From the NCBI GenBank assembly GCA_964387595.1, contig CAYLYF010000001.1, positions 18,747-82,746 of the forward strand: DNA of 64,000 nucleotides. The letters are read 5' to 3'. Positions 19,847-59,106 of this stretch are shown in pieces. The translations under genes and the position numbers were made by a program. Position 1 is the stretch's first letter; each line of letters starts with the position of its first letter. The stretch is from an uncultured Thermodesulfobacteriota bacterium (GTDB lineage: Bacteria > Desulfobacterota > WTBG01 > CAIYCZ01 > CAIRTM01). The notes below the pieces were generated by a model. The model searched no databases. It was not told the origin of the DNA and worked only from the letters and a program-made list of their open reading frames with translations.

Positions 19847-20031
19847 ATAAATTACTCCCCCAAAGATTTATAAAGCCTATTTATAGTATATATTAAATTC
19901 TCATCGATTTATCCATGGGTGTAAACCCCCGGATATTTTGGGTGTTTATGGTTTGTTATGGTTTTACGGTGTGTTAAAGATGTTTTGGTAATACAGGCAA
20001 AGCGGAAATAAAATAGAGTGAAGAAGGGGGT

Positions 20032-21042
20032 TTAACAGATCCTGGGCAGAAGTTCTCCTGCAGGAAGGTCGATCTGTCGGGTTCCGCCGATCACGGTTTG
20101 AAGAATGAGTCTGCCTTTTTTTTCTTCACTGACTTCTCCGATGATGGCGGCATTTTTTCCAAAAGGATTATTTTTCATTATTTCCAGGATATTTTGAGCA
20201 TAAGATGATGGACAAAAAAGCACCATCTTTCCCTCATTGGCAAAAAAGAGCGGATCAAGACCCAGTATTTCACAGGCTCCCCGAACCTTGTCATTAATCG
20301 GGATTTTCACCTCATCAATATTTATGGTGTGACCGGATTGTGATGCGATTTCTGAAAGGATGCCGCCGAGTCCGCCCCGGGTGGCATCCCGCATGCAGTG
20401 GACTTCAGGACAGGATTTAAGTATCTGTTCAACAAGTTTATTCAGTGGGGCTGAATCGCTGATAATGTCTGAACTTAGATTAAGGTCTTCTCTTTTGTTA
20501 AGAATGGCGGCTGCATGATCGCCGATGGTGCCGTTTATGATGATGGCATCGCCCGGTCTTATTTCCTGGACAGAGATGTTTGCCTCATACTTAATGAGGC
20601 CTATGGCGGAAGTGTTGATAAAGATTTTGTCTGCGGCCTCTTTATTAACGACTTTGGTGTCCCCGGTAATGATGTGAACGCCGGCATTTTTGGCAGCTTG
20701 ACCCATTGATGAAACAATTTCCTCCAGTTCTGAAATCTCAAATCCCTCCTGGATGATAAATCCCGCACTCAGGTAAAGGGGTTTTCCGCCGCGCATGGCA
20801 ATATCATTTACGGTGCCGTGAACTGACAATGAGCCGATGTTTCCACCGGGAAAGAAGATCGGATTTATGACGTATGAGTCTGTGGTGAAGCAGAGTTTGG
20901 TGCCGTTTATATCAAAGGCGGTGCTGTCTTCCATCTGGGAAAGAAGGGGGTTGTCAAAATGGGGTTTAAATTTTTCGGAGATGAGTTCCCCGGTTAATAG
21001 GCCGCCGCTGCCGTGGTCGAGGAGAATCTTGTTGTCACTCAT
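20032..21042 (-). CDS. hypE: hydrogenase maturation protein HypE
   Basis: 336 aa, AIR-synthase-like. MSDNKILLDHGSGG N-terminus. C-terminal PRIC. Confidence 0.9.
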   Translation of the reverse strand: MSDNKILLDHGSGGLLTGELISEKFKPHFDNPLLSQMEDSTAFDINGTKLCFTTDSYVINPIFFPGGNIGSLSVHGTVNDIAMRGGKPLYLSAGFIIQEGFEISELEEIVSSMGQAAKNAGVHIITGDTKVVNKEAADKIFINTSAIGLIKYEANISVQEIRPGDAIIINGTIGDHAAAILNKREDLNLSSDIISDSAPLNKLVEQILKSCPEVHCMRDATRGGLGGILSEIASQSGHTINIDEVKIPINDKVRGACEILGLDPLFFANEGKMVLFCPSSYAQNILEIMKNNPFGKNAAIIGEVSEEKKGRLILQTVIGGTRQIDLPAGELLPRIC

Positions 21043-21204
21043 AATACACCTTTTTGTTTATAATATGTTTTGGTTTTTAGAGATAATTCTTTTTCTTTAA
21101 AGGGTCCAGGGTTTCTCGGTCGTAGCAGAGAGCAGAGTAGAGCATTTTTGTTTCCAGATGTTATTCTCTATGCTTTTACCGTCATGCGCTTTGTATTCAT
21201 CGTC

Positions 21205-23472
21205 TTACAGCTGTGAAGCAGCACAAACGGCCTGTCCCAGGGAGATGCCGCCGTCATTGGGGGGGACAAGGCTGTGGGTGATGACTTCAAAGCCTTTATC
21301 CGCCATTTTCTTTACGCATCCTTCAAGAAGTATTCTATTTTGGAAACATCCACCGCTTAATACTACCCGGTTTAATTCTTTTTCATTTCTTAATATTTCA
21401 GCCATTTTTGTAAAAGAATCTACAAGCGTAGCGTGAAAAGTCGATGCCAGATATTTATTGTCTTTGCGGTCAAGCTTCATTTCAATAATATGCTTTATTG
21501 CAGGCATCAGGTCAAGGATATGGGCGTTTTGTTCATGGGTGATGCTGAATTCAAGTTCTGTATCATCACGCTGTTCTGCAATTGCTTCAAGTTCCATGGC
21601 AGCCTGTCCTTCAAAGCTTACGCTGTTTTTTATGCCGATCAGGCAGGAAACGCCGTCAAAGAGTCTTCCCAGACTTGAGGTGGTAAAACAGTTAATTTCT
21701 TTTTTAATGGCAGTTTCAAAAAGGTCAAGATTTTCATCTGTTGGGCAAAGGCTGAGTTCTTTTGCCAGCTGTTTCCATGAGCCGGGATGGGTTGTTCTGA
21801 TCAGGGAAAGTGCAATGCGCCATATCCGGCGGATGGAACTTTCTCCTCCGGGAATGAGGATGTTTTTTAAATGTCCTGCACGGCTAAAATCTTTTTCATT
21901 TGCAATTAAAAATTCTCCGCCCCAAACTGTATTCTCCGGGCCGTAACCGGTACCGTCCATTGCAATTCCAATAACATCTCCGGATATATTATTTTCTGCC
22001 ATACAGCTTACAATATGGGCATGGTGATGCTGGACCGGGATGATTCTTTCAGGTCCCATTTCTTTTGCAAGGGCCGTAGAAAAATAATCCGGGTGCATGT
22101 CGCAGGCAATGATTTTTGGGGATGTATTTGAAACAGCTTTAAGCAGGTTTACGCTTTCGCGAAGAAAATCACGGGCCTCAGGTGTTTCAAGGTCACCAAT
22201 ATGGGGGCTTAAATAGGCTTTTCCCCCTTTCGTAATACAGGCTGTTGATTTCAGGTGAGGGCCCAGAGCTAGTACCTCAGGATAGTTCTTGTTAAGCCTG
22301 ACGGGTGAGGGCACATAACCCCGTGAACGGCGAAGCATAACCGGATTTCCGGATAATACCATTGCGATCGAATCATCGTTTCTGACCCGTATGTCCCGGT
22401 TGTGGATCAGGAAAAATTCTGCAATACCTGAAAGTCTTGTTACGGCTTCTCTGTTCCCAATGCAGATCGGCTCATCTTTTTTATTGGCACTTGTCATGAC
22501 AAGTGCCTGGAAACTGTTTTCAAAAAGAAGATGCTGAAGCGGTGTGTAGGGAAGCATGATTCCAAGAGAGGGAAGATCTCCGGCGATCACTTTTGCAAGG
22601 GAAGAAAAAGTTTTCTTTTTTAACAGTACAATTGGGCATTCTGGAGAAAGAAGCAATTTTTTTTCTTTTTCATTTATCTCACACAGCTCTGCGGCCTGCA
22701 GTATATCTTTTACCATTACAGCAAAGGGTTTTTCTTCCCTGAACTTGACTTCCCTTAGTTTTTTCACTGCCTCGCTGTTATATGCATCAGCACACAGGTG
22801 AAAACCGCCAAGACCTTTTATGGCTGCTATCTGCCCGTTTGAAAGAATCTCTATAATATCAAGAACCGGATCATCCGAGCTTATTTCGTTACCTTCTTTG
22901 TCCAGCAGCCATAATTTTGGGCCGCAGTCCGGACAGGCATTGGGCTCAGCATGGTAGCGCCGGTTATTCGGATCTTCAAATTCTCGGCTGCAGGAGCGGC
23001 ACAAAGGAAAACAGGACATGGAGGTATTGGCCCGGTCGTAAGGCACATTTTTTAATATGGTTAATCTCGGGCCGCAGTTTGTGCAGTTAATAAAAGGATA
23101 GCGGTATCTCCGGTTGAGCGGGTTTAAAAGGTCATCTTTGCAGGCGATGCAGGTGGCTATGTCAGGCGTGATCAGAACGTCAGGACGTGCGTCAGACGTA
23201 CTTTTAAGGATTTTAAATTGCCGGTCATTTTCCGGAGGAATATCTTCTGTTACGACTTTTTCAACCTGTGACATGGGGGGGTAGCAGCTTGATAGTTCAT
23301 TGTAAAAGAGATCCAGTGCAAATGATCCCCCTTCAACCTCAAGCAGAACCCCCTTTCCGGTGTTTTTTATAAAGCCTGTAAGGCTATGACGGCACACAAG
23401 TCTGTAAAGGGAAGGGCGAAAACCCACTCCCTGAACAATTCCTGTAAATAAGGAGCGAAGCCGTTTCTGCAT
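21205..23472 (-). CDS. hypF: carbamoyltransferase HypF
   Basis: 755 aa. Acylphosphatase domain, two CxxC Zn-finger pairs, YrdC-like and Kae1-like domains. Confidence 0.9.
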   Translation of the reverse strand: MQKRLRSLFTGIVQGVGFRPSLYRLVCRHSLTGFIKNTGKGVLLEVEGGSFALDLFYNELSSCYPPMSQVEKVVTEDIPPENDRQFKILKSTSDARPDVLITPDIATCIACKDDLLNPLNRRYRYPFINCTNCGPRLTILKNVPYDRANTSMSCFPLCRSCSREFEDPNNRRYHAEPNACPDCGPKLWLLDKEGNEISSDDPVLDIIEILSNGQIAAIKGLGGFHLCADAYNSEAVKKLREVKFREEKPFAVMVKDILQAAELCEINEKEKKLLLSPECPIVLLKKKTFSSLAKVIAGDLPSLGIMLPYTPLQHLLFENSFQALVMTSANKKDEPICIGNREAVTRLSGIAEFFLIHNRDIRVRNDDSIAMVLSGNPVMLRRSRGYVPSPVRLNKNYPEVLALGPHLKSTACITKGGKAYLSPHIGDLETPEARDFLRESVNLLKAVSNTSPKIIACDMHPDYFSTALAKEMGPERIIPVQHHHAHIVSCMAENNISGDVIGIAMDGTGYGPENTVWGGEFLIANEKDFSRAGHLKNILIPGGESSIRRIWRIALSLIRTTHPGSWKQLAKELSLCPTDENLDLFETAIKKEINCFTTSSLGRLFDGVSCLIGIKNSVSFEGQAAMELEAIAEQRDDTELEFSITHEQNAHILDLMPAIKHIIEMKLDRKDNKYLASTFHATLVDSFTKMAEILRNEKELNRVVLSGGCFQNRILLEGCVKKMADKGFEVITHSLVPPNDGGISLGQAVCAASQL

Positions 23473-23474
23473 GT

Positions 23475-24131
23475 TTATCCTTTAAACTGTTCTATTTGAC
23501 CGGTCAGCCAGGAGACCCATTGGTCAAGCCCTTGACCTGTTTTGCATGAAACCCCAAAGATGTTTAAGTCCGGGTTAATGCTTTTTGCGTCTTTTAAAGC
23601 CTTTTTCATATCAAAATCAACATAGGGTAAAAGGTCGGTTTTGTTGATGAGCAGCGCGGTGGATTCCTTGAACATGAGCGGGTATTTCATGGGTTTGTCC
23701 GCACCTTCCGGCGTGCTTAGCAGCATTACTTTTATATTCTCCCCAACTGAAAATTCTGCAGGGCATACTAGGTTTCCCACGTTTTCATTGATGATGAAAT
23801 CGATCTCATCCATATTAAACCCGGGGAAGGTCTCACGGATCATATTGCCGTCAATGTGACAGGCCCCGCCGGTGTTGATCTGGGCAACCGGAATGTCGAG
23901 CTTTGCGATCCGCTCAGCATCATAGGTGTCCTGAATATCGCCTTCGATGACTGCTATCCGGAACTTATCTTTAAGCGCCTTGATCGTTTCTTCAACCAGG
24001 GTTGTTTTTCCGGCTCCCGGTGAACTCATCAGGTTGATCACGTAAATATTTTTTTCGTCAAACAGTTTCCTGTTTTCCTGAGCGATCCTGTTGTTTGCGT
24101 CAAGTACATTCTTTACCACGTTTATTTTCAT
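23475..24131 (-). CDS. hypB: hydrogenase nickel-incorporation GTPase HypB
   Basis: 218 aa. P-loop SPGAGKTT. CH motif GGACH. Confidence 0.9.
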   Translation of the reverse strand: MKINVVKNVLDANNRIAQENRKLFDEKNIYVINLMSSPGAGKTTLVEETIKALKDKFRIAVIEGDIQDTYDAERIAKLDIPVAQINTGGACHIDGNMIRETFPGFNMDEIDFIINENVGNLVCPAEFSVGENIKVMLLSTPEGADKPMKYPLMFKESTALLINKTDLLPYVDFDMKKALKDAKSINPDLNIFGVSCKTGQGLDQWVSWLTGQIEQFKG

Positions 24132-24148
24132 TTTTAAAACCTCTCGGG

Positions 24149-25237
24149 TCAGTGATATTTATAATAGGTTGAACAGGTGCCTTCAGAAGACACCATGCAG
24201 GGGCCTATGGGATTTATAGGGGTACATGCTTTCTTGAAAAGCGGGCACTCCCCGGGATTTTTTATGCCGCGCAGGATGTCCCCGCAGGAACAGCCTGTAA
24301 TTTCTTCAGGAATGATTTCCGGTATTTCAAAACGTTTCAGAGCATCAAAACTGCTGTATTCATTTTTAAAGACAAGTCCGCTTCCGGGAATGTTGCCGAT
24401 GCCTCTCCATTCAGCAGAACAGGCTTCAAAAACTTCAAACAGGATGTTCCGTGCCTTTTTGTTTCCCTCCGGGGAAACCGCTCGTTTGTACTGAATCTCG
24501 ATTTTTTTCGTATCGTTAATAATCTGTTCGAGTATTAAATAGATGCCTTCCAGAATATCAACAGGCTCAAATCCGGTGATGACTGCACTGCGTCCTGCCT
24601 TTATAATATCTTTATAAGCCTCTGTTCCGGTAATGGTGCTCACATGTCCTGGACACAGAAAGCCGTCAATGGCAAGGGCTGGATCTTCAATCAGTATCTT
24701 TATAGCCGGGGGCATTGTCTTCATTACACAATACACAGAAAAATTCCAGATATCTTTTTTATGACATGTTTTGATTACAGATGCAATTGTTGGGGAAGTG
24801 GTCTCAAATCCGATTCCCATAAAGATGATCTCTTTTGAAGGATTGTCCTGGGCTAGTTTGATGCAGTCGGCAGCAGAGGTAACGATCCGGATGTCTGCGC
24901 CTTCTGCTTTTGCCGTCTGAAGGCTTCTCCGGTTTGAACCCGGCACCCGTATCATATCTCCAAAGGTTGTAAATATGGTATTTTTAATATTGGAAAGAAA
25001 GACGGCCGTATCGACTTCGCGGGCAGAAGTGACGCATACCGGGCAGCCCGGGCCTGAAACCAGTTTGATGTTTTCAGGGAGCAGGTTCCGTATACCGAAT
25101 TTACCGATGGCATTTGTGTGGCTGCCGCACACTTCCATGAGGGTGATATTTCCGGGTATTTTTTCTGCACGGGTTTTTATGCCTTTAATCAGGCTTTTTA
25201 CCAGGTCAGGGTTTCGGTATTCATCAATTAATTTCAT
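24149..25237 (-). CDS. hypD: hydrogenase maturation factor HypD
   Basis: Motifs CPVCVTS, GFETT, CPGHVS. Start refined to internal Met (MKLIDEYRNPD). Confidence 0.9.
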   Translation of the reverse strand: MKLIDEYRNPDLVKSLIKGIKTRAEKIPGNITLMEVCGSHTNAIGKFGIRNLLPENIKLVSGPGCPVCVTSAREVDTAVFLSNIKNTIFTTFGDMIRVPGSNRRSLQTAKAEGADIRIVTSAADCIKLAQDNPSKEIIFMGIGFETTSPTIASVIKTCHKKDIWNFSVYCVMKTMPPAIKILIEDPALAIDGFLCPGHVSTITGTEAYKDIIKAGRSAVITGFEPVDILEGIYLILEQIINDTKKIEIQYKRAVSPEGNKKARNILFEVFEACSAEWRGIGNIPGSGLVFKNEYSSFDALKRFEIPEIIPEEITGCSCGDILRGIKNPGECPLFKKACTPINPIGPCMVSSEGTCSTYYKYH

Positions 25238-25252
25238 GGGTTTAAAAATATT

Positions 25253-25280
25253 TTGCCGGTGGCAGGCCACCGGCAAAATT
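25253..25280 (-). terminator. perfect 12-bp-stem, 4-nt-loop hairpin with flanking A/T runs between the barrel gene and hypD (candidate intrinsic terminator or attenuator)
   Basis: ttttgccggtgg-cagg-ccaccggcaaaa. On the minus strand it is followed by tattttt. Confidence 0.5.
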
Positions 25281-25318
25281 CTATTGCTTATTGTGAACTT
25301 TATTCTATGAACATCATA

Positions 25319-26224
25319 CTAGAAATAGAATACAACATCAAAGGTAAAACGGTCGCGCATCAGGTTGGCATTCTTGTCTGTGAGGGGGGTCTCGTAGGCA
25401 ACACCAATATCCATATTGTCCATGCAGCGGAAACGCATGCCTGCTGCCAGGGTCACGATATGTTTGTTTCTTTTTCCATGGCTTGAACCCAGGTTGATCA
25501 GGTCGCCGCCTTCAAATTCAGCAATGCTGGCGACCAGCTCTTTGCGGTTTCCTTCTTTTACAACAGCAAAATGATTTAGCTCGATGAGCGGAAATATTCT
25601 GGGGGTTAATGCATAACTTACGTGAAGGTTGTTGAACATGATGGTGCTTTCGTCATCACGGTCTAAAGGAATGATCGCTCCCGTTCCGCCGTTGATCTGG
25701 AATTTGCCCAGTCCTTTTAAGAAACTAATTTGAGCAGAAATGTTTCCGTCTCCATTACCCTGGAATACGTCGTTGCTTCCCTGGGTGAGTTCAACCATCA
25801 AGCGTCCGGAAACGATAAGTTCTTTTTCAGGATTATAGATAAATGCATATTTTACGCCGGCACCATAGTCGCCCCAGCCGTCTTCACTTGAAAGGGTATT
25901 GTCAGGATTAAAATCAATATAACCTGTTTTTTCTGCAACAAGTGAAAGCTTTTCATTGATTGCATACGTGAGCTGAAGTGCTGTGACATTTAGGTCACCG
26001 TCAAGTTTAACATCACCAAGTGCAGTTTTGATATGTTCAGGCATTTTCTGACGAGCATGAATCACTCTAATTGATGTTTCATTACGTGGATCAATTGAAT
26101 AGACCGGGTTGCTTAAGGGCCTGATAAACCGTGAAAACGGTTTTTCATCCTCAGCAAAAGCTGAAATGCTGGTCAAGAAACTGAGTGCAGTTGTGATTGC
26201 AAGAATAATCAATTTGTTTTTCAT
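25319..26224 (-). CDS. outer-membrane beta-barrel protein (MetA-pathway/transporter-like OMP)
   Basis: 301 aa. Signal peptide. Alternating amphipathic strands. C-terminal aromatic ...VVFYF. Confidence 0.55.
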   Translation of the reverse strand: MKNKLIILAITTALSFLTSISAFAEDEKPFSRFIRPLSNPVYSIDPRNETSIRVIHARQKMPEHIKTALGDVKLDGDLNVTALQLTYAINEKLSLVAEKTGYIDFNPDNTLSSEDGWGDYGAGVKYAFIYNPEKELIVSGRLMVELTQGSNDVFQGNGDGNISAQISFLKGLGKFQINGGTGAIIPLDRDDESTIMFNNLHVSYALTPRIFPLIELNHFAVVKEGNRKELVASIAEFEGGDLINLGSSHGKRNKHIVTLAAGMRFRCMDNMDIGVAYETPLTDKNANLMRDRFTFDVVFYF

Positions 26225-26321
26225 GGGTTGCCTCCTCTTGAAGTTCTATAGTTTAACCTAGTTTATACAGTATTCGTTTTTGCTTGACGGGGTGTTTCCT
26301 TTTGTATTTCTTTCCTTTCTG

Positions 26322-26573
26322 TTAGGGATGTGATTCTATTTTTTTGTCCTCGTCTTTATCTAATATTTCCTGTAACAGCTTAAGCCGTTCTCGGGCTTCA
26401 ATATGATCTACCTTATGAATGGCAAAGCCGGCATGACAAATTACGTAGTCTCCAATGCTGACATCTTCATCTATAATGTCGAGACAGGTCTCTCGCTGTG
26501 TACCGCCCACATCTATGGCAGCATAGTTGTCTTCATCTATGGAGAGGATCTTACCCGGGAAGCCTATGCACAT
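26322..26573 (-). CDS. hypC: hydrogenase assembly chaperone HypC/HupF
   Basis: Start refined to MCIGFPGKI (essential Cys2). 84-aa HypC-sized product. Confidence 0.85.
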   Translation of the reverse strand: MCIGFPGKILSIDEDNYAAIDVGGTQRETCLDIIDEDVSIGDYVICHAGFAIHKVDHIEARERLKLLQEILDKDEDKKIESHP

Positions 26574-26772
26574 GATTTTTCCTTTAATAGTGGATGGCTC
26601 GTCAAAAGTCCAACTTCTGTGTTGCACTGCTTCCTCTGTCATTGCAGCGTACGAAAGTACGCCTCATTCCTTTGGACTTGCGCGCCTTGAATTTGAAGCT
26701 TTTTACTTTGCCATCTTTTTAAATTATCATGACTTAAACAGCAGTATGAATTTTGTTAACTAAGCTGTTAAA

Positions 26773-27117
26773 TCAGTCTACATCCATATCAATAATTTTT
26801 AGCTCTTCAGTCCCACCGATAAGGGTGACCTCGGGACTGCCACACTTCGGGCAGTCTGATCCGAACTCTTTTACCTCCAGGTCTTTGCTGCATTCGAAGC
26901 AGTGAATTCGGGGAGGAAGTATCTTGAAATTCAGTTTAGCCCCTTCTGCGCAGCTGCCTTTTGCCTGTATTTCAAAGGCGGTACAAAGGGTGGAAGTCTC
27001 AACGCAGGCAAGTCTGCCAAGTGTCAGACTAAGAGAATTAACCTTTTTAAAACCGTGTTTTCCAGCATACTCATCAATTATTTCAAGTATGGACTGTGCC
27101 AGAGAAAGTTCATGCAC
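26773..27117 (-). CDS. hypA: hydrogenase nickel insertion protein HypA
   Basis: GTG start giving (M)HELSLAQSI. Zn-finger CFECS...CPKCGS. Confidence 0.85.
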   Translation of the reverse strand: MHELSLAQSILEIIDEYAGKHGFKKVNSLSLTLGRLACVETSTLCTAFEIQAKGSCAEGAKLNFKILPPRIHCFECSKDLEVKEFGSDCPKCGSPEVTLIGGTEELKIIDMDVD

Positions 27118-27607
27118 AATTTTTAAGCTCCGGAACAATATTAAGTTTTTGAAGCTCCTTTAATAGTAAATCTTCCATCTTCTGAAAACGCTTTTGTATT
27201 TTATCAGTCATCTCAAGATTCATATCTCCGTATTCATACGGGACGATACAGAGAAAAACTGTTTCAGGCGAGTCTTCAATGAGTTCTGCCTGATTGAGGA
27301 CATCAAAGAATTCCACTTCGTGCGCAGAGGTAGGCTCTGGCAGATGAAGCTTCATTTCCTCTTTGTTGAAACGGTAAATAGACCCCGGCGTGTCATCTGT
27401 TTTTATGGTATCTATGACGATCAGGTTTTGGGTTCCGGAGATAGTGTCCAGCAGGCTGTATCCAAGTGTTCCTCCGTCAACAATATCTGCATTTTCAGGG
27501 AAGCGGTATTTTTCATTGAAAATTCGTGTGAAATGGACACCGAAGCCTTCATCTGTCAGGAGAATGTTGCCGAGTCCGAGTACTCTCAGGTATTTTTTTT
27601 CTTCCAT
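27110..27607 (-). CDS. [NiFe] hydrogenase maturation endopeptidase (HyaD/HybD family)
   Basis: 165 aa. N-terminus LRVLGLGNILLTDEGFGVH. Confidence 0.85.
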   Translation of the reverse strand: MEEKKYLRVLGLGNILLTDEGFGVHFTRIFNEKYRFPENADIVDGGTLGYSLLDTISGTQNLIVIDTIKTDDTPGSIYRFNKEEMKLHLPEPTSAHEVEFFDVLNQAELIEDSPETVFLCIVPYEYGDMNLEMTDKIQKRFQKMEDLLLKELQKLNIVPELKNCA

Positions 27608-27663
27608 TAGGTAAGCCGTGCAGGACAGACAGAAAGGGATTTTTCTGTCTGTCCTGTAAAAGA

Positions 27664-28332
27664 TTATTTATTTTTCTTCTTAAACAACAGGCCGCTTATC
27701 ATGGAAGAAACCGTTCCTTCGCGAAAAACGCAGTCGTACCAGAAAGCCATATAAAGATGTACAATAAAAAACAGCATAAATAGCCACATGACGATGTGGT
27801 GGATGTAGCGTACACCTGCCAGACCGCCCATCATTGTTTCGACGGGTCTTAACAGTTCATATGTCCAGGCCGTGATGCCTGCATGATAGCCTGCCCCGGT
27901 TAAGATAATGCCGGTGAGAACGATCATAAACAGCATAAAGATACAGCCGCCATAAGCAAGGGATTGCATGGGCCCGTATAAAAAACGATGTGCAGGTGGT
28001 TTGTTTGATACCAGCATATAGAATTTTATCTGTTTGATCATGTTTTTTGGATCTGCCCAGGCAAAGAAGTCTTTCCAGTCTGCGTGAAAACTGGAAAAGA
28101 ACATTAAATACATTCTCCAGATGAAAATAAAAACAAGAAAAACCCCGAATAGAATATGGATAAAACGCATATCTCCCATCAGGAATTTCCAGGTTGTTTC
28201 GCCGGAGGAAACAGAGAAGGGCATTGCAATGTAAAAGCCGGTAACGATAAGTGTGATTATCGATGCTACCATGCCCCAGTGGTTAACTCGTATAGCTGGT
28301 GACCATTCTTTTTTTGCGGTCCTGGTATCCAC
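27664..28332 (-). CDS. Ni/Fe-hydrogenase b-type cytochrome subunit
   Basis: 222 aa, four TM helices with conserved His ligands. Immediately downstream of the large subunit. Confidence 0.8.
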   Translation of the reverse strand: MDTRTAKKEWSPAIRVNHWGMVASIITLIVTGFYIAMPFSVSSGETTWKFLMGDMRFIHILFGVFLVFIFIWRMYLMFFSSFHADWKDFFAWADPKNMIKQIKFYMLVSNKPPAHRFLYGPMQSLAYGGCIFMLFMIVLTGIILTGAGYHAGITAWTYELLRPVETMMGGLAGVRYIHHIVMWLFMLFFIVHLYMAFWYDCVFREGTVSSMISGLLFKKKNK

Positions 28333-28419
28333 CGTTAGCTCCTTTCAAATTTAACAGCTAAGTATAAACAATGTTTTTAGCTGTGTTTTTTGTTTTATTT
28401 TATGACTTTAGTCTTTCAC

Positions 28420-30090
28420 CTAAGCCACTTTAAACTTCTTCACTTTGTTTGTTTTCGGATCAATGATATGAACAGCACATGCCATGCATGGATCAAAGGA
28501 ATGGATGGTCCGGATGATCTCAAGCGGCTGATCAATGTTTGAAAGTTTTGTTCCAATAAGAGCTTCTTCATACGGGCCGCGTTTTCCGGATTTATCCTTT
28601 GGCGCCGCATTCCAGGTGGACGGGACGATGGCCTGGTAGTTTTCAATGACCTTATTGTCTATGTTAATCCAGTGACCCAGTGCACCGCGGGGAACTTCGT
28701 TCATGCCGCGTCCCTGGCTTTTTTGCGGAACATCACAGCGGGTCCAGGTCCGGGTGTCGCCTGATTTAAGGTTTGCGATCAGTTCATTGACCCAGCCTTC
28801 GGTACGATCAGCCACCAACTTTGTTTCAAGTGCACGGGCTGCTGTTCTTCCCAGGGTTGAAAAAAGAACTGTTATCGGAAGACCGGTTGCTTTCAGGGTG
28901 GAGTCGACCAGATGCTTGATCTCGTTATGTCCTTGTGAGTAACCCACTATAAAACGGGCCAGAGGACCGACTTCATAGGGCAGTCCATCGTAACTCGGCG
29001 CTTTACACCAGGTGTATTTCTCATCTCCTTTTACATTTCCTTTGCTGTCATAGCCGGTATATTCTGGTTCTGTCTTTCCTTTGTAGGGGTGAAGCGATTC
29101 TTCGCCCTTATACCAGGAATGTTTTACTCCTTCGGTTATTTTGTTTTCATCCAGTTCTAGAGGATTTGAGATGTCTCCGCCAACCACAACGCCTTTTGGG
29201 AGGAGAGTTTTCTGCCAGTCATCGTCAAGCGGGAATCCGCCGTAACACAGGTAATTCTTCACGCCTGCGCCGATACCGGCTGCGCCTTCATCTTTGTATG
29301 CGCCGGCTGCGATCAGCACGTCAGGAATATAGGCTGTTTCCATAAAGTTCTGTAATTCTTTGAATTTGAAAAGATACTGTCCGATCCTGTTTGCATTAAG
29401 GTCGTCTACGCAGGTCACTCCGCCCACCACAAGGCTTTGCGGGTGGGGGTTCTTTCCGCCGAAGATCGCCATCATCTGTGCGCCGAGTTTTGAAACCTTA
29501 AGTGCGTCGAGGTAATGAGAGACGATCACCAGGTTTTCTTCCGGAGACAGTTTGAAGGATGAATTGCCCCAGTAGGCATTGGCAAAAGGTCCGAGGCGTC
29601 CGGATTTTACAAACTTGGTCAGTCTTTTCTGTACGGCCCTGTAGTTTGTTTCTGAGCAGTTGTATGGATTATCATTATAGCTCTTGGCCAGATCCACTGC
29701 TTTTTTCGGGTCTGCTGAAAGTGCACTGACGATATCTACCCAGTCCAGTCCGTGCAGGTGATAGAAGTGCATGATGTGATCATAAATAAACTGTGATGCC
29801 TTGATCAGGTTCCTGACCAGACGGGCGTTCGGTGGCGGGGTCACGCCAAAGGCATCTTCACAGGCCATGATGCTTGCTTCATAGTGAGAGTAGGTACATA
29901 CACCGCAAAAGCGCTGTACGATGAGTCCCGCATCTCTCGGGTCACGGCCTTTTAAGATGGTTTCGATTCCGCGCCATAGCGTTATTGAACTCCAGGCATC
30001 CTGGATTACATTATTGTCATCTACTTCGACTTCTATTCTTAAATGTCCTTCGATCCGTGTGATCGGATCAACAACAATTCTTTTTCCCAT
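28420..30090 (-). CDS. [NiFe] hydrogenase large subunit (group 1, Cys-type)
   Basis: 556 aa. N-terminal RIEGH...CGVC. C-terminal DPCMACAVH plus a cleavable tail. Confidence 0.95.
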   Translation of the reverse strand: MGKRIVVDPITRIEGHLRIEVEVDDNNVIQDAWSSITLWRGIETILKGRDPRDAGLIVQRFCGVCTYSHYEASIMACEDAFGVTPPPNARLVRNLIKASQFIYDHIMHFYHLHGLDWVDIVSALSADPKKAVDLAKSYNDNPYNCSETNYRAVQKRLTKFVKSGRLGPFANAYWGNSSFKLSPEENLVIVSHYLDALKVSKLGAQMMAIFGGKNPHPQSLVVGGVTCVDDLNANRIGQYLFKFKELQNFMETAYIPDVLIAAGAYKDEGAAGIGAGVKNYLCYGGFPLDDDWQKTLLPKGVVVGGDISNPLELDENKITEGVKHSWYKGEESLHPYKGKTEPEYTGYDSKGNVKGDEKYTWCKAPSYDGLPYEVGPLARFIVGYSQGHNEIKHLVDSTLKATGLPITVLFSTLGRTAARALETKLVADRTEGWVNELIANLKSGDTRTWTRCDVPQKSQGRGMNEVPRGALGHWINIDNKVIENYQAIVPSTWNAAPKDKSGKRGPYEEALIGTKLSNIDQPLEIIRTIHSFDPCMACAVHIIDPKTNKVKKFKVA

Positions 30091-30145
30091 TTTATTTATT
30101 CCTCCTCGGAATTAACATTAAAGATATTATATAAAGGTCGGCTCT

Positions 30146-31339
30146 TTATTCATCCTCAGGTTTAGGGCGTTTTATTGCAGAGGCAATGCCGTGAGCTGCA
30201 ATACCTGCTGCGGTAACTCCCAGAAGAGTGGCACCTATTTTGTCCACTGTTTTTTCACCGCCGCCGATGGTTTTTTCGGATATGGGTTTTTCAAAAGGCG
30301 ACATGGTGTCCCAGAAGCCCGGTTCGGTACAGCCCATGCAGCCGTGTCCAGCCTGTACCGGCCAGGATGTACCGTCATTAAATTTTATTTTACTGCAGTT
30401 TGCATAGGTGTAGGGACCCTTGCAGCCCATTTTATAAAGGCACCATGCCTTCTGTGCGCCGGCATCTCCCCATTCTTCAACAAATTCAGCTGCATCATAG
30501 TGGGCACGGCGTTCGCAGAAATCATGGATCCGTTTACCGTATGCCCATAAGGGCCTTCCCAGAGAATCTGCAGGCGGTAAAGATCCGAACAGAAGGAAAT
30601 GGAGCAGGGTTCCCACAAAGTTAGCCGGATTCGGAGGACAGCCCGGAATGTTTAAAGTTTTTATGCCGATGGCATCACTGATGCCTTTTGCATCGGTTGG
30701 ATTAGGCTTCGCCGCCTGAACACCGCCGTAAGAGGAACAGGTTCCGATACAGATGGTGGCAGCCGCTTTTGAAGTGACCTCTTTTGCGATTTCGAGCCCT
30801 GTTTTTCCTTTGGGACCCAGGGTCAGATATTTTCCGTTCATGCCAGTGGGAATGGCACCTTCAATAACACAGATAAATTTTCCTTCAAAATCATGCATGG
30901 CCTTTTCAAGGCATTCTTCTGCCTGATGTCCTGCGGCAGCCATGAGTGTTTCGTGATATTCAAGGGAGATGGTCTCAAGCAGGATATCATCTATGTTCGG
31001 GTAAGATGTCCGAAGCAGAGATTCGCTGCATCCGGTACATTCTGCAAAATGAAGCCATACCACAGGGAGACGGGAAAACTTTTCTGCTGCTTCGGCTACT
31101 TTTGAGCTGAATACCGGCGGAAGCATAAGTGCGGCAGTCATCAGAGAGGACCATTTTACGAAATCCCTCCGGGTGACGCCGTTTTCCTTAAGCGCTTCGT
31201 TCAGATCTTCTTTTGCCGGCGGTAATTCCGTGTTTATTTTTTCCAGATTAAGATTGCAGCGTTCCATTAGATCCTGGTACTGCCTGGAAAGGTTGTCTTT
31301 TCCATCGCTCTTCTTGTAGCCCATACTGATTCCTTTCAA
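30146..31339 (-). CDS. [NiFe] hydrogenase small subunit with Tat signal
   Basis: Twin-arginine RRDFVK. FeS-cluster Cys pattern. C-terminal TM anchor. Confidence 0.9.
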   Translation of the reverse strand: MKGISMGYKKSDGKDNLSRQYQDLMERCNLNLEKINTELPPAKEDLNEALKENGVTRRDFVKWSSLMTAALMLPPVFSSKVAEAAEKFSRLPVVWLHFAECTGCSESLLRTSYPNIDDILLETISLEYHETLMAAAGHQAEECLEKAMHDFEGKFICVIEGAIPTGMNGKYLTLGPKGKTGLEIAKEVTSKAAATICIGTCSSYGGVQAAKPNPTDAKGISDAIGIKTLNIPGCPPNPANFVGTLLHFLLFGSLPPADSLGRPLWAYGKRIHDFCERRAHYDAAEFVEEWGDAGAQKAWCLYKMGCKGPYTYANCSKIKFNDGTSWPVQAGHGCMGCTEPGFWDTMSPFEKPISEKTIGGGEKTVDKIGATLLGVTAAGIAAHGIASAIKRPKPEDE

Positions 31340-31822: not shown

Positions 31823-32299
31823 CTATTTTTTTTCCTGTTCCCGTGCTGCCAGCCGGTTCTTTCTCCGGGTCTGGGCCTGGCTGTTTCGCTGCTTTCCATC
31901 TTCTGTCTCAAAGATAAGTGGCGGGATCTGAGTGGGTCTGCCGGCTTTGTCCAGAGCGACAAAGGTAAGATAGGCAGAGGCATTGTGTCTGACCTCTCCG
32001 GTCAGCAGGTTTTCAGATTCTATCCTGACTCCGATCTCCATGGAGGATTTCGCAGTGAGGTTGATGCTTGCTTTAAGGGTCAGAAGGTCGCCCACAAAAA
32101 CCGGATAGTGAAATACCAGACTGTCAATGGATGCGGTGACAGAGTTATTTCGGCTGTGTCTGAAGGCAACAATGCCGGCTGTTTCATCAACATGTTTCAT
32201 GATGATGCCGCCGTGGACATTTCCAGCAGGGTTCGCATCTTCCGGCATCATTATTTTGGATGTGGTTATAGCGCTGTCTTTTACTTTTTTGCTTTCCAT
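31823..32299 (-). CDS. acyl-CoA thioesterase (hotdog fold, YciA-like)
   Basis: Motif GNVHGGIIMKHVDETAGIVA. The start may be an internal Met. Confidence 0.7.
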   Translation of the reverse strand: MESKKVKDSAITTSKIMMPEDANPAGNVHGGIIMKHVDETAGIVAFRHSRNNSVTASIDSLVFHYPVFVGDLLTLKASINLTAKSSMEIGVRIESENLLTGEVRHNASAYLTFVALDKAGRPTQIPPLIFETEDGKQRNSQAQTRRKNRLAAREQEKK

Positions 32300-32405
32300 C
32301 GGTTAACTCCTTAAGCCCTTTATGCTGGCGTTATGACCTCTGTTTTTATCGGAAAAATTTGAGGTTTTTTGTTTTGTCATATTTTTATGATTTTTTACGG
32401 CTGTA

Positions 32406-34010
32406 TTATCTATAACGTATTCTGTTCTCTTTTGTCAGTGAGAGACTGGACAGGCTGTTTAGTCTGTTTTCAACAATACTTCGCAGGGTAATATATGTCG
32501 ACATTTTTTTTTGGTTCTTAAATATGAAATATTTGTCACCGCCGGATGCCAGAAATGAATTTATAGCAACTTTATAGGATCTTTCAGAAATAAGTGGTTC
32601 ATATCCCCGGTTAGGGTCAAGAATTTTTATATTTGATACCCGTTTCCCCTTGTTGATGATTTTTAATTCACCGGTTGTTTTATCTTTTTTTATTTTAAAA
32701 GAGTTCTTGTTTGTATCCACATCAAAACGAAGCCCTGAGACCTGGAGAAAACCGCCGTATTCTAAAGGAAGAAAAGAGACGCTCTGTTCAAGGATCTGTT
32801 TTATTTCATACCCCTTAAGCGAAAGTATGGAAATCTGGTTTTCAAAAGGAAGCATGGTATCAATATCTTCAGTTGTAATATTTCCGGGAGGTATTATCCT
32901 TTCTCCTCTTATTCCGCCGCTGTTTTGAAAGGCAACGTCTACGTTAAAATGTTCTCTGATTATGTCAGCTATCATGTTTCCGGCTGCTGCTTCCCGTGTC
33001 CTCAGGGTCTCTCCTCTGCAGTCCAGTGCTTTTTTTAAAATGGTTAAAACTTTTCCTTCGGGAAGATCTTTATTGTAGGATGTTATAAGGTCAAGCGCTT
33101 TTTTATCCTGCCTTATCTTTGAGGTGACCCTGATCGGTTCCCATAAGTGACTTATGATGTTTCCCTTTTCTACGACCATACTCAGCAGACCCAGATATTC
33201 ACCTCGTGCCCCGGCATGGGTTATTATTGTCTTTCGGCCGTCTGCATGGTTAATAACCGTTTCTTTTTCTTTTTCCATCAGATCATGTGAATGCCCCCCG
33301 CAGATCAGGTCGATCTCCGGTACTTGACCGGCAAGCTTAATATCTTCTTCAAGGCCGAGATGGGTTAAGGCCACGATCAGGTCCGGGGATTCTTTCTGCT
33401 TCAGACTTCTGATCATATTAACTGCCGATCCTGCGATGTCAGGATCAACAGCAACATTATTGCCGGCGTTTGAGATAAAGCTAAGGTCTGGGGTCATCAG
33501 ACCGATGACACCGATTTTTATACCGTTTCTGTTAATGATCTTAAATCTTTCAAAGCTGTTTTTTAAAGAACTGTTGTCTATGGTCTCAAGGTTTGATTCA
33601 ACAATCGGGAAACTGCAATATTTTAACGCATTGGAGAGTGCTTCCACTCCCCTGTCAAACTCGTGGTTTCCAAGGGTGGCCGAATCTATCCCGAGCAGGG
33701 ACATGGCTGAAAAGATGGCCTCACCCTTAAACCGGAGAAAGTATTTGCCGGTCAGGCTGTCTCCCGAAGAAAATAAAACGGTTTTTTGCTTGTTCAGTTT
33801 TTTTATTGTTTTAACAACAGAGGCGATGCGGGTTATCCCGCCGGCGTTTGAAGTGCCATTATCTTTTTCAGCGGCAAAAGGTTCCAGCTGACCGTGGAGG
33901 TCTGAGGTCGTCAGAATAATAAGCTCTCTCGGTTCAGCCCGGGAAGAAACTGCAATCAGGAGAATGACAAAAAAGAAGAAAAATGATTTTATCAGGCTGT
34001 TTTTTTTCAT
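32406..34010 (-). CDS. secreted bifunctional metallophosphatase/5'-nucleotidase (UshA-like)
   Basis: Signal peptide. DLHG, GNHEFD and GGHSH motifs. C-terminal 5'-nucleotidase domain. Confidence 0.8.
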   Translation of the reverse strand: MKKNSLIKSFFFFFVILLIAVSSRAEPRELIILTTSDLHGQLEPFAAEKDNGTSNAGGITRIASVVKTIKKLNKQKTVLFSSGDSLTGKYFLRFKGEAIFSAMSLLGIDSATLGNHEFDRGVEALSNALKYCSFPIVESNLETIDNSSLKNSFERFKIINRNGIKIGVIGLMTPDLSFISNAGNNVAVDPDIAGSAVNMIRSLKQKESPDLIVALTHLGLEEDIKLAGQVPEIDLICGGHSHDLMEKEKETVINHADGRKTIITHAGARGEYLGLLSMVVEKGNIISHLWEPIRVTSKIRQDKKALDLITSYNKDLPEGKVLTILKKALDCRGETLRTREAAAGNMIADIIREHFNVDVAFQNSGGIRGERIIPPGNITTEDIDTMLPFENQISILSLKGYEIKQILEQSVSFLPLEYGGFLQVSGLRFDVDTNKNSFKIKKDKTTGELKIINKGKRVSNIKILDPNRGYEPLISERSYKVAINSFLASGGDKYFIFKNQKKMSTYITLRSIVENRLNSLSSLSLTKENRIRYR

Positions 34011-34306
34011 GATTTAAAATCTGTGCGGGTTATCAGTCTGCAACAGTGATAATATTACGTAATTTTATAAAATTTACAAGTTAAATCAATATATTATCTT
34101 ATAGCCTTTTGAAATATTGTGAACTCTCTTGGAATTTATAGGTCGTTTTTTCTATTTTCGTAAATTTAACTAAAAAAACAAATCAGTGCTAAGTAAAGCT
34201 TGATTTTTGAATTTTTTATGCAATAATTTGACCAAAACGTGTTTATGTGCCTTTTTAAAAGTTTTTTTAGTTTAATCATAAATAAAAAATTTAATGGGAT
34301 AGTATT

Positions 34307-35596
34307 ATGCTTATTGAATTCAGTGTAAAAAATTATCGTTCGATCCGGGATAAACAGACATTCAGTATGGCTGCCGGTTCTGCAAAAGAAATGTTTGACG
34401 AGAATACCTTTAATTCCGGTATTGCACGGCTTCCGAATCTGCTTAAATTAGCTGTCGTCTATGGCCCGAATGCAGCGGGTAAAAGCAATTTTGTGAAAGC
34501 AATTCAATTTATGCGTCAGTTTGTTAAATTGTCGTCAAAAGATTCTCAGCAGGGAGAACGGATTGAAGTCATTCCTTTCCTTTTTGATAAAGAGAATCGT
34601 TCCGTACCGAGTGAGTTTGAAGTTGTTTTTGTACAGGAGCAGGTTCGCTATCAGTATGGATTTTCTGTCACCTCTCAAAATGTAACTGCCGAATGGCTTA
34701 TTGCCTACCCTCAGGGGAAACCACAGCGGTGGTTTGAACGTATGTATAACCCTGAAACCGGTAAAACGAAGTGGCACTTCAGTCCAAAGTTTACGGGTAA
34801 ACGAGAGGTTTGGAAAGAAGCCACCCGTACGAATGCTCTGTTTCTGTCAACGGCAATTCAGTTGAATAACCAACAGCTTAAGCCGGTTTTCGACTGGTTC
34901 AATGTTGTGTTAAGAATTATGCCACCTATCGCCCAAGAAGATTTGAACATTAAATATACTTTTAAGAAATGTGAAACCGGGGAAGGTAAAAAAAATGTTT
35001 TAGACTTTATGAACGCAGCAGATATCACCATTGCTGACATTGAGGTAAATACCGAACCTCTAATGCCGGAGAAACTTCCGGACGACATGCCTCAAGATAT
35101 GAAAGATGCTTTTCTTAAGATGATTGAGGGTGCAGATAAAGAACCGAAGCTTACTTCCTGTAAAATGCACCACAAAACTGGAGCTGCCGATGAAAGAGTC
35201 ACTCTTGATCTTGGTGAGGAATCGGATGGTACGAAAAAACTGTTTTCCTTGGCGGGTGTTTGGATGCATTTACTTTCTGAGGGACTTATCCTTGTAGTTG
35301 ATGAGCTTGATAACAGTTTGCATCCGTTATTGTTAAGATTTTTGGTAAAACTTTTGCAGAATCCCGAAGTAAATAAGAATAATGCGCAGTTGATCGTTGC
35401 TACTCATAATACGGCTTTGCTTGACAGTGAAATTTTACGGCGTGACCAGGTCTGGTTTATGGAAAGGGATGATTCAAGTGCAAGCAGGCTTTATCCACTT
35501 TCTGATTTTTCTCCGCGCAAAAACGAGGCAATCGGTAAGGGCTATCTCCAGGGCCGGTACGGGGCTGTGCCTTTCATCGGACAGTGGGTATTTTAA
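34307..35596 (+). CDS. AAA family ATPase (AAA_21/ABC-like, AbiLi/RloA-type)
   Basis: 429 aa. Walker A GPNAAGKSN. C-terminal ATHN His-loop. Overlaps the downstream gene by 13 bp. Confidence 0.8.
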   Translation: MLIEFSVKNYRSIRDKQTFSMAAGSAKEMFDENTFNSGIARLPNLLKLAVVYGPNAAGKSNFVKAIQFMRQFVKLSSKDSQQGERIEVIPFLFDKENRSVPSEFEVVFVQEQVRYQYGFSVTSQNVTAEWLIAYPQGKPQRWFERMYNPETGKTKWHFSPKFTGKREVWKEATRTNALFLSTAIQLNNQQLKPVFDWFNVVLRIMPPIAQEDLNIKYTFKKCETGEGKKNVLDFMNAADITIADIEVNTEPLMPEKLPDDMPQDMKDAFLKMIEGADKEPKLTSCKMHHKTGAADERVTLDLGEESDGTKKLFSLAGVWMHLLSEGLILVVDELDNSLHPLLLRFLVKLLQNPEVNKNNAQLIVATHNTALLDSEILRRDQVWFMERDDSSASRLYPLSDFSPRKNEAIGKGYLQGRYGAVPFIGQWVF

Positions 35597-36279
35597 TGGG
35601 GACCGACGACCTCTTCCACAAAAAACGAGAGCGTGGTATTCGTGATTTGAAGCGTAAAAGAGCGTTGCGTTCTCCTTATGGCAGGGTTCTAATTGTTTGT
35701 GAAGGCAAAAAAACTGAGCCGAATTATTTCAGGGAGCTTATTCGGGATAAAAAATTGAATACGGCAAAGGTTAAGGTGGAAGATAATAAACAAGGGTCTG
35801 ATCCAATGAGTGTTGTCAAATATGCACTGGCTTTGTATAAGAAGGATTCCGAATATGATCGGATCTTCTGTGTTTTTGACAGGGACCGTCACACGACTTA
35901 TGATGCTGCTCTGGATAAAATCAGGCAGCATCGTTTTGGAAAATCTGGAAAGCTTGCAGCTGTTACCTCGGTGCCATGTTTTGAGTTTTGGCTGTTGTTA
36001 CACTATGAGTATACAGCCAGACCTTTTGGCCAGGGTGTTGGTTTAAGACAGTCATCTTGTGAAGCTGTTATGACACGCCTTGAAAAATTTCTTCCCGGGT
36101 ACAAAAAAGCTGATCAGGGCATTTATGATAAAATCAAAAACAAAATAACCGATGCGATAAAACATGCCGAACAGCTTGAATCTGCTAGCCGTACCAGCGG
36201 CGCAACTGATCCCTCAACAGAAGTTCATAAACTTGTACAATGTTTATTTGATCTGGGAAAGGTTGAATCGGTGGCTTGA
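35584..36279 (+). CDS. RloB-like protein (AbiLii-type partner)
   Basis: 231 aa. VLIVCEGKKTEPNYF is the hallmark N-terminal RloB motif. Confidence 0.8.
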   Translation: MGILMGTDDLFHKKRERGIRDLKRKRALRSPYGRVLIVCEGKKTEPNYFRELIRDKKLNTAKVKVEDNKQGSDPMSVVKYALALYKKDSEYDRIFCVFDRDRHTTYDAALDKIRQHRFGKSGKLAAVTSVPCFEFWLLLHYEYTARPFGQGVGLRQSSCEAVMTRLEKFLPGYKKADQGIYDKIKNKITDAIKHAEQLESASRTSGATDPSTEVHKLVQCLFDLGKVESVA

Positions 36280-36373
36280 TGTTTTTATGAGCATTTTGCA
36301 ATGAAAACCAGCTAATATGTTCAGGTTAGTCTAAAAAAGAGTATCAATAATTATGTATCCTGTCCCTGAATTT

Positions 36374-37405
36374 TTATTCCGGCTGTGCGATGGTTCTGCC
36401 TGCAGCTTTTGCAAAGCCCGACAGATTTTTCATCATTCTTTCAAACTTTTCCGGTTTTAAAGACTGCAGTCCGTCGCTTTCCGCGTGGTCCGGATGGGGA
36501 TGAACCTCGATCATCAGGCCGTCTGCGCCGGCTGCCACAGCAGCGTTTGCCATGGGTTCGATATATTTCCAGTGTCCGGTAGCATGGCTGGGATCGATGA
36601 TAACCGGCAAATGGGTCATCTGACGGAGTACGGGTATGCAGCTGATATCCAGTGTGTTTCGGGTTGCGGTCTCAAAGGTTCGGATTCCTCTTTCACATAG
36701 AATGACGTTCGGGTTTCCGGATGAAATAATATATTCCGCCGACATCAGGAACTCTTCTATGGTGGTCATCATGCCGCGTTTTAAAAGAATGGGCTTGTCT
36801 GCTTTCCCAACTTCTTTTAAAAGTGCAAAGTTCTGGATATTTCTGGCGCCGACCTGGAGGACATCCGTATATTTGCAGATCAAATCAAGGTCGGCGGGCT
36901 TTAATATTTCAGTAACAATGGGAAGGCCGGTCTCTTCTTTGGCTTTTTGGAGAAGGACGAGGCCTTCTTCTTCCATGCCCTGAAAACTGTAGGGGGAAGT
37001 CCTGGGTTTAAAGGCCCCGCCTCTCAGCATGGTTGCGCCTGCTTTTTTGACCGCTTTTGCCGTTTCGATGATCTGTTCTTCCCCTTCTACAGAACAGGGG
37101 CCGGCCATAACAATGACTTCATTTCCGCCGATTTTCACTTTTCCGTTTACGGAAATAATGCTTTTATCAGGTTTTACTTCCAGACTTGCAAGTTTATAGG
37201 GTTTGAGTATCGGGACCACATTTTCGACCCCGGGAAGGTTTTCCATGGCCTGGAGCTTGTCTTTTCCCCTGTCGCTTCCCACTGCGCCGATAACCGTTCT
37301 TTCTTCGCCTTTGATGATATGAGCCTGATATCCGAGAGATTCAATGGTATCTTTTATTTCCTGGAAATCTTTTTGCGAGATGTCTTTTTTGAGGATAATA
37401 ATCAT
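36374..37405 (-). CDS. aroF: 3-deoxy-7-phosphoheptulonate (DAHP) synthase, type I-beta, with N-terminal ACT-like regulatory domain
   Basis: 343 aa. KDO8P/DAHP synthase core (GPCSVE... [12 protein letters not shown]). Confidence 0.85.

Positions 37406-55599: not shown

Positions 55600-59106
<3,507 letters not shown>

Follow-up and report, generated by a model that had tools for sequence, protein, structure and literature searches.

Within a 64-kb window (positions 1-64000), the whole stretch of DNA analysed here, we studied the interval 34011-36373 of an uncultured Thermodesulfobacteriota-like bacterium. The interval is flanked by minus-strand genes on both sides and is filled by two co-directional plus-strand open reading frames (ORFs). 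As the first-pass annotation of this DNA had proposed, the two-gene pair lies between a 5'-nucleotidase (5'NT) gene and the 3' end of the DAHP synthase (DAHPS) gene (Table 1). The evidence supports its identification as an intact, ordinary pair of the AbiL (RloA/RloB-like) family, an ATPase with a predicted nuclease, and we refer to the two genes as abiLi and abiLii.

The first protein matched Pfam AAA_21 (E 1.3e-38) and AAA_15 (E 1.1e-10, end to end), as well as the PADLOC AbiLi model PDLC02335 (E 1.8e-101, 337 bits). For the second, RloB was the only Pfam family above threshold (E 9.9e-41, 140.5 bits against a cut-off of 31.5), and the PADLOC AbiLii model PDLC02337 matched at E 1.9e-30. The PADLOC definition of AbiL thus applies, each hidden Markov model being matched by one of two neighbouring genes that run in the same direction within one operon. 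Automated defence finders would reach this identification too. The AbiL/RloA-RloB-type identity suggested earlier from the letters alone was therefore borne out by these searches. A PADLOC AriA match to AbiLi uses a 304-position model, equal in length to Pfam AAA_21, and we infer that this is probably a generic AAA_21 model. An NCBIfam scan of the pair gave nothing near the cut-offs. RloB-type relatives numbered 1,966 proteins at E <= 1e-5 and ATPase relatives about 8,000 in a 90%-clustered database, while the RloB profile found 10,275 representatives of 50%-identity clusters at E <= 1e-3. One sister sequence is 85% (AbiLi) and 77% (AbiLii) identical, and the other nearest relatives are ~50-57% identical. 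The nearest relatives are mostly from metagenome-assembled genomes of Deltaproteobacteria or Thermodesulfobacteriota; one Pedobacter protein is equally close.

Table 1. Features of the AbiL locus and its surroundings, in window coordinates
Feature	Position	Strand	Remarks
5'-nucleotidase gene (Metallophos/5_nucleotid_C)	32406-34010	minus	left neighbour
Conserved element GATAATATTACGTAATTTTATAAAATTTACAA	34047-34079		holds palindrome TTACGTAA at 34055-34062
AbiL cassette leader, AT-rich	34080-34306	+	DNA seen only in AbiL-carrying loci
Promoter-like site TTGATT-16 nt-(TG)cAATAAT, extended -10	34200-34227	+	from promoter scan; inside block 34194-34231
abiLi	34307-35596	+	ABC/SMC-type (AAA_21/AAA_15) ATPase, 429 aa; Pfam and PADLOC matches
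AbiLi Walker A, YGPNAAGKSN	34460-34489	+	residues 52-61; contains K59
AbiLi signature, S306-x-G308	within 35213-35245	+	
AbiLi Walker B/D-loop, D332, E333	35282-35326	+	
AbiLi H-loop, H367	within 35384-35416	+	
Alternative abiLii ORF from GTG	35584-36279	+	231 aa; would overlap abiLi by 13 bp
abiLii	35596-36279	+	RloB-family predicted Toprim nuclease, 227 aa from ATG at 35596
AbiLii candidate metal ligands	E36 35701-35703; E41 35716-35718; D95-x-D97 35878-35886; E130 35983-35985	+	
AbiLii K171	36106-36108	+	conserved in at least 90% of diverse homologues
abiLii-DAHPS spacer	36280-36373		94 bp between convergent stops; homology to a sister-species locus (L083) ends at ~36285, the approximate right cassette edge
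DAHP synthase gene (DAHPS)	36374-37405	minus	right neighbour

The two genes are tightly, translationally coupled. The abiLii ATG begins on the last base of the abiLi TAA stop (TAATG, a 1-nt overlap), and this ATG was also picked by gene callers on identical public contigs (JGI 3300022838 Ga0222681_1000010; ENA ERZ27315831). The N-terminus read from it (M1, G2, D4, L6, then F-H-K-R-K) shows little or no variation among 46 homologues, and a stop and start sharing one base were likewise called in all six other contexts of the pair. The true start is almost certainly this ATG and not the GTG at 35584. The coupling noted at first pass therefore holds, but the 13-bp overlap reported with it does not, being an artefact of taking the first in-frame start.

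The catalytic motifs of both proteins are intact. The Walker A and His-loop already recognized in AbiLi were confirmed, and across 37 homologues the invariant positions are G53...G58-K59-S60, Q116, S306-x-G308, D332-E333 and H367. An hhalign comparison with P2 Old aligned the signature, Walker B and H-loop (E 7e-4); against the PDB, by sequence and by profile, AbiLi gave marginal matches only (retron Ec83 ATPase, PtuA and SMC). In AbiLii, the earlier reading of an RloB signature was correct: VLIVCEGKKTEPNYF occupies residues 31-45, exactly at the start of the Pfam RloB match. Among 68 diverse RloB proteins (34-77% identity to the query), E36, G37, E41, Y44, P70, D95, P127, E130, W132, H136, P206 and T208 are invariant, and D97, H99, S125, C128, Y169 and K171 are conserved in at least 90%.

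The Toprim signature consists of a Glu after strand 1 and a DxD after strand 3 (PMC6755086, PMC12065111), and RloB has been counted as a member of the Toprim superfamily (PMC12065111). The AF2/AlphaFold model of AbiLii (predicted local distance difference test, pLDDT, 82; predicted template modelling score, pTM, 0.78) comprises four beta strands that alternate with helices and, after them, a C-terminal domain made of helices; E36 lies at the end of strand 1 and D95-x-D97 at the end of strand 3. The predicted strand layout and the placement of these residues match the Toprim core and signature. By analogy with the Burkholderia OLD site (E400/E404/D455/D457/E508/K562; PMC6755086), E41 and E130 would be placed like the metal-B ligands E404 and E508, and K171, in the helical domain, may correspond to K562. 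Searching the PDB with AbiLii, by sequence and by profile, gave nothing, no RloB structure being found by sequence, and Foldseek of the model against the PDB gave no significant match. Pfam searches at E <= 1 on the 68 RloB proteins added only sub-threshold DUF3226 and DUF4276, in two members each. Ahead of the Pfam RloB domain, AbiLii residues 1-30 (35596-35685) form a strongly conserved basic N-terminal helix, MGTDDLFHKKRERGIRDLKRKRALRSPYGR, modelled at pLDDT ~55; this segment may dock AbiLi or serve as a nucleic-acid grip.

To place the pair among its relatives, we compared locus variants recovered by a metagenome scan with the neighbouring 4HBT thioesterase. The window reads IleRS / DAHPS / AbiLii-AbiLi / 5'NT / 4HBT / [NiFe] hydrogenase. 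One sister species (L083) also carries the pair, in the order IleRS / AbiLii-AbiLi / 5'NT / 4HBT / AMP-ligase, with 78% continuous nucleotide homology over window 32405-36285 and DAHPS missing; its AbiLi and AbiLii are 85% and 77% identical to the window proteins. The other variants lack AbiL. A more distant locus, L101 (IleRS 81%, DAHPS 87%), reads IleRS / DAHPS / 419 bp / 5'NT / 4HBT / hydrogenase and so presents an empty site. In L095, ~20 codons of the DAHPS 5' end are fused beside a 3' remnant of 5'NT, a scar of a deletion that therefore removed everything between DAHPS and 5'NT. As its flanks are 98.7% identical to L083 over 3,956 bp, L095 and L083 belong to the same species. Four further loci (L096, L097, L099 and L123) read IleRS / ~180-bp 3' remnant of 5'NT / 4HBT, and two (L098 and L100) have an intact 5'NT with unrelated genes upstream. 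The L095 contig stops exactly where the locus becomes variable, 371 bp upstream of 4HBT, which fits an assembly break from strain heterogeneity at the locus in that sample. Two other scans were less useful. In GTDB, the best DAHP synthase relatives were 70-77% identical with nothing syntenic downstream of DAHPS, making that scan uninformative, and a metagenome scan with 5'NT, using low-complexity patterns, gave no confirmed matches.

The empty L101 junction and the L095 scar indicate that the pair is accessory and horizontally acquired. The first-pass annotation had come to the same conclusion from composition and codon usage; synteny upholds the conclusion, not that argument. Nor is the pair a fixture at this position in all relatives, being shared with a single sister species among the variants recovered. 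In the simplest history, the ancestor of the window and the L083/L095 species would have had a window-like order with AbiL, the cassette having entered between DAHPS and 5'NT beforehand. At least one later deletion, in the sister species, would then have removed it.

Two other parts of the neighbourhood vary as well. The first is DAHPS, which is an indel in its own right. The window and L101 have the gene; it is replaced by 153 bp between AbiLii and IleRS in L083, reduced to ~20 codons of its 5' end in L095, and gone from L096, L097, L099 and L123. DAHPS-less genomes must carry DAHP synthase elsewhere or a different isozyme. A cluster of hyp maturation and [NiFe]-hydrogenase genes (~18857-31339, ~13 kb, from an RCC1-like gene to the small subunit) sits between an AMP-binding ligase (16879-18465) and the 4HBT thioesterase (31823-32299) in the window. 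These two genes are adjacent in L083 and L095, with no hydrogenase between, and L097, L098 and L101 have hydrogenase beside 4HBT; the cluster is thus variably present within the clade.

The same alignments delimit the cassette. The upstream spacer (34011-34306, 296 bp) has a guanine-cytosine (GC) content of 0.236, the lowest of 20 intergenic regions >100 bp in the window (next 0.246), in agreement with the AT-rich flank of about 300 bp described earlier. In the leader, alignment with L098, L100 and L101 drops out while L083 stays aligned. Just upstream of it, a near-identical copy of the GATAATATTACGTAATTTTATAAAATTTACAA element occurs upstream of 5'NT in the AbiL carriers (the window and L083) and in the AbiL-less L098 and L100. 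Being common to these AbiL-less loci, the element probably belongs to the ancestral DNA upstream of the divergent 5'NT gene or regulating it, in which case AbiL-specific DNA spans ~34080 to ~36285. The element lies ~40-70 bp from the 5'NT start codon in the window and L083, and ~420 bp upstream in L098 and L100; GATAATATTACGTAATTTTATAAAATTTACAA, with its palindrome TTACGTAA, is possibly an operator or promoter element of that gene. Within the leader, a 38-bp block (34194-34231) is identical in the window and L083, the longest exact run in a spacer 69% identical overall. We propose that the promoter-like site inside it, ~80 nt upstream of the abiLi ATG, is the abiL operon promoter. An inverted repeat around this site (34164-34179 / 34261-34276) was dismissed, as it is not conserved in L083. 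No terminator-like hairpin was detected in the spacer between abiLii and DAHPS, and an Rfam scan of 33800-36600 gave no match at E <= 1.

Selection on the pair was assessed from the window-L083 comparison. Synonymous divergence (dS) is 0.81-0.92 for all four genes compared (4HBT, 5'NT, abiLi and abiLii), so the AbiL pair and its flanks diverged together. The ratio of non-synonymous to synonymous divergence (dN/dS) is 0.050 for 4HBT, 0.095 for abiLi, 0.146 for abiLii and 0.258 for 5'NT. Judged from these ratios, both abiL genes are under purifying selection, stronger than that on the adjoining 5'NT. A dS of ~0.8 with dN/dS of 0.10-0.15 between two carriers shows that the pair has long been resident and under selection. 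In the assembly collection, the exact AbiLi sequence is indexed in 47 blocks. Two housekeeping proteins from this genome give an identical count, and the pair therefore appears fixed in the sampled population of the species.

Composition gave no sign of recent transfer. The description of the genes themselves as an AT-rich island was not sustained: GC is 0.419 for abiLi and 0.421 for abiLii, compared with 0.430 for the window. The contrast in Arg codons with neighbouring genes also failed, the CGN:AGR ratio being 26:12 in the pair and 419:360 in the rest of the window (Fisher p = 0.095), with an AGR share that ranges from 0.12 to 0.83 across window genes. By codon chi-square, AbiLi ranked 3rd and AbiLii 11th among 47 genes, with IleRS and PFOR (pyruvate:ferredoxin oxidoreductase) higher; once gene length is allowed for, the pair does not stand out in codon usage. 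GC, GC3, Arg codons and per-gene codon chi-square were accordingly rejected as evidence of recent transfer. Codon usage in the PFOR gene (55603-59106, 1167 aa) deviates more than in any other gene of the window (chi-square/df 4.05); 12% of the PFOR Arg codons are AGR, against ~46% overall, and the next gene (59766-60785) shares the bias; this probably reflects high expression, not transfer. We found no direct repeats flanking the pair, no integrase or transposase among the annotated window genes, and no tRNA or tmRNA gene in the whole 64 kb. Host-like GC and codon usage do not exclude an acquired defence gene; here, synteny alone revealed the accessory status.

Elsewhere, the pair travels as a unit. 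In all seven independent contexts (the window and six others), it consists of ATPase plus RloB with a 1-nt overlap. Neighbours in the six others include PhdYeFM/PIN, PhdYeFM/ParE, RHH/PIN and HEPN/NTase toxin-antitoxin pairs, a large helicase, a reverse transcriptase, N6_N4 methyltransferases, an AAA_21+DUF4276 pair with IS200-type transposases, and plain housekeeping genes; none of the six lies inside a type I restriction-modification (R-M) locus. In one of them (L092, 5102-13070), the AbiL pair lies immediately next to an AAA_21 + DUF4276 (MAD3/MAD4-like) pair and to a ParE-like/HTH pair. This whole group is enclosed between two IS200/IS605-type Y1 transposase genes and for that reason looks like a composite-transposon defence islet. 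Plasmid relatives at 27-40% identity comprise 75 records for RloB, from a tblastn of AbiLii against 72,556 plasmids, and 180 for the ATPase; carriers include 3.9-kb E. coli and 5.25-kb Klebsiella plasmids, and one relative is in the temperate Klebsiella phage ST13-OXA48phi12.1. The AbiL module is thus self-contained and mobile across phyla.

Taken together, the locus is best explained as an intact, expressed-looking two-gene defence module of AbiL type, with the gating mechanism and the history of insertion and retention set out below; we give this explanation a probability of roughly 0.78. AbiL has been grouped with the systems that combine an ABC ATPase with a TOPRIM protein (PMC11464382). 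In PARIS, AriB, a Toprim nuclease, is caged by the ATPase AriA until a phage protein is sensed; the release of AriB then leads to tRNA cleavage (PMC11464382). In P2 Old, the Toprim site opens once the oligomer is destabilized, and cleavage of tRNA follows (bioRxiv 10.64898/2026.07.10.737580). Because PARIS and P2 Old work in this way, AbiLi may be expected to sense infection and gate AbiLii. AbiLi oligomers would bind AbiLii and hold the nuclease inactive until the ATPase senses a cue from the phage, which would be a protein or an aberrant nucleic-acid structure. AbiLii would then be released or activated, and its two-metal Toprim site would cut host nucleic acid, most likely tRNA, as for PARIS AriB and P2 Old, with DNA as the alternative. 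Translation would halt and the infection would abort. Consistent with this scheme, lactococcal AbiL acts after phage transcription (PMC13064643), and F. nucleatum AbiLii is toxic in E. coli (PMC3985639). As to history, a ~2.2-kb cassette would have inserted between the DAHPS and 5'NT genes in the ancestor of the window lineage and its sister species, and would since then have been under purifying selection and occasionally deleted.

Several observations weigh against this explanation. In the single published test, AbiLi failed to neutralize F. nucleatum AbiLii toxicity in trans (PMC3985639), which leaves the restraint-and-release step unproven for the AbiL family. A 2026 review calls the AbiL mechanism unknown and leaves PARIS-like operation to further work (PMC13064643). 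The RloB profile aligned with P2 Old in the right register by hhalign at a non-significant E of 0.08; a search for OLD Toprim homologues from which to build a profile yielded five fragments only. The AlphaFold model of AbiLi (pLDDT 59.6) was too poor for a fold search. Finally, the locus sits among housekeeping genes and not in a defence island.

The pair could instead be a selfish toxin-antitoxin (addiction) module, with AbiLii as toxin and AbiLi as antitoxin, kept since its loss is penalized and without a current anti-phage role. NetFlax places pairs of an AAA ATPase and RloB/Toprim in a type II toxin-antitoxin network, and related pairs have been validated as such (PMC10440598); homologues often lie beside classical toxin-antitoxin pairs, and some are carried by very small plasmids (3.9-5.3 kb). 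Yet one strain of the sister species has cleanly deleted the module, as have other lineages, so that any addiction is not absolute, and the simple form of this model is at odds with the failure of AbiLi to neutralize the F. nucleatum toxin in trans (PMC3985639). Toxin-antitoxin and abortive-infection roles can also coexist, and AbiL is defined by its phage phenotype. We consider addiction without defence unlikely.

A domesticated nuclease and ATPase that serves in housekeeping or under stress, for example in RNA processing or DNA repair, would account for the core-gene surroundings, the host-like composition, the retention of the same site across dS ~0.8 at low dN/dS and the apparent fixation in the sampled species population. 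It accounts poorly for close relatives that have the same neighbourhood and lack the pair, or for the patchy spread of the family, which is found on plasmids, in a phage and within defence islets; nor is a housekeeping role known for any relative. A role of this kind seems less likely still. The RloB family is named after genes inside Campylobacter type I R-M loci (PMC10440598, PMC13064643), which raises the idea of an RloA/RloB-type accessory working with such a locus or with an anticodon-nuclease locus. The called genes account for almost the entire 64-kb window, and their Pfam annotation revealed no hsd, methyltransferase, PrrC-like or other R-M gene and no other defence-type gene, in keeping with the earlier description of the pair as stand-alone and the only defence-type cargo. 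No such gene is adjacent in the six other contexts either, two of which have unrelated N6_N4 methyltransferases several genes off, and an accessory role is very improbable. Least credible of all is a decaying, non-functional remnant of an old insertion, as might be suggested by the missing mobile-element hallmarks and the recurrent deletion in relatives, since both ORFs are full length in two species with all catalytic motifs intact, dN/dS is 0.10-0.15 and the promoter block is conserved.

Beyond the AbiL defence module itself, a broader extension is tentative and, on balance, doubtful. RloB might represent a third, independently diverged lineage of ATPase-gated Toprim tRNases beside PARIS AriB and P2 Old, with its basic N-terminal helix (residues 1-30; M1, G2, D4, L6) docking AbiLi or gripping tRNA, and the cassette might be a long-term resident immune gene instead of fast-turnover island cargo.

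AbiL is one of the older named abortive-infection systems, and its trigger, target and assembly are listed as unknown in the 2026 review (PMC13064643). The locus adds nothing new in kind. It offers a clean, minimal, stand-alone example of AbiL with a defined, though predicted, promoter, and it supplies invariant or conserved residues (AbiLi K59, D332/E333 and H367; AbiLii E36, E41, D95, D97, E130 and K171) together with a natural comparison of carrier and non-carrier strains and relatives.

Among known systems, AbiL of Lactococcus lactis pND861, as represented in PADLOC, has the same two-gene operon, an AAA_21/AAA_15 ABC-type ATPase followed by an RloB-family protein. In contrast to this archetype, the present pair is chromosomal and lies among housekeeping genes of an uncultured Thermodesulfobacteriota-like host; in the tblastn of AbiLii against plasmids, Lactococcus was not among the ten leading organism names shown. 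The MAD3/MAD4 genes of MADS (AAA_21 ATPase plus DUF4276) likewise combine a related ATPase with a small Toprim-like partner. Here, however, the partner is RloB and not DUF4276, methylation genes are absent, and the NCBIfam MAD3 match is weak (28.9 against a cut-off of 420 bits). Campylobacter RloA/RloB share the Pfam RloB domain paired with an ATPase but, unlike the present pair, lie in or next to an R-M locus. The OLD family (P2 Old, class 2 OLD and Gabija GajA) differs in that ATPase and nuclease are separate polypeptides here; AbiLii also has a conserved basic N-terminal helix and a helical C-terminal domain of its own, and its profile match to the P2 Old Toprim is not significant. PARIS (AriA/AriB), with which AbiL is grouped in the literature (PMC11464382, PMC13064643), resembles the present pair in its split architecture, in which a separate Toprim-type nuclease follows an ABC ATPase, and in the expected logic of a sensor or antitoxin and a released nuclease. 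AriB is a DUF4435/OLD-type Toprim, whereas the effector here is RloB (PF13707), and neither sequence nor profile searches of the PDB with the RloB query retrieved a chain of AriB, OLD or any other Toprim protein. As in ABC-ATPase plus Toprim systems generally, AbiLi has the full motif set (Walker A, signature, Walker B and H-loop), and AbiLii has the corresponding placement of E36 and the DxD.

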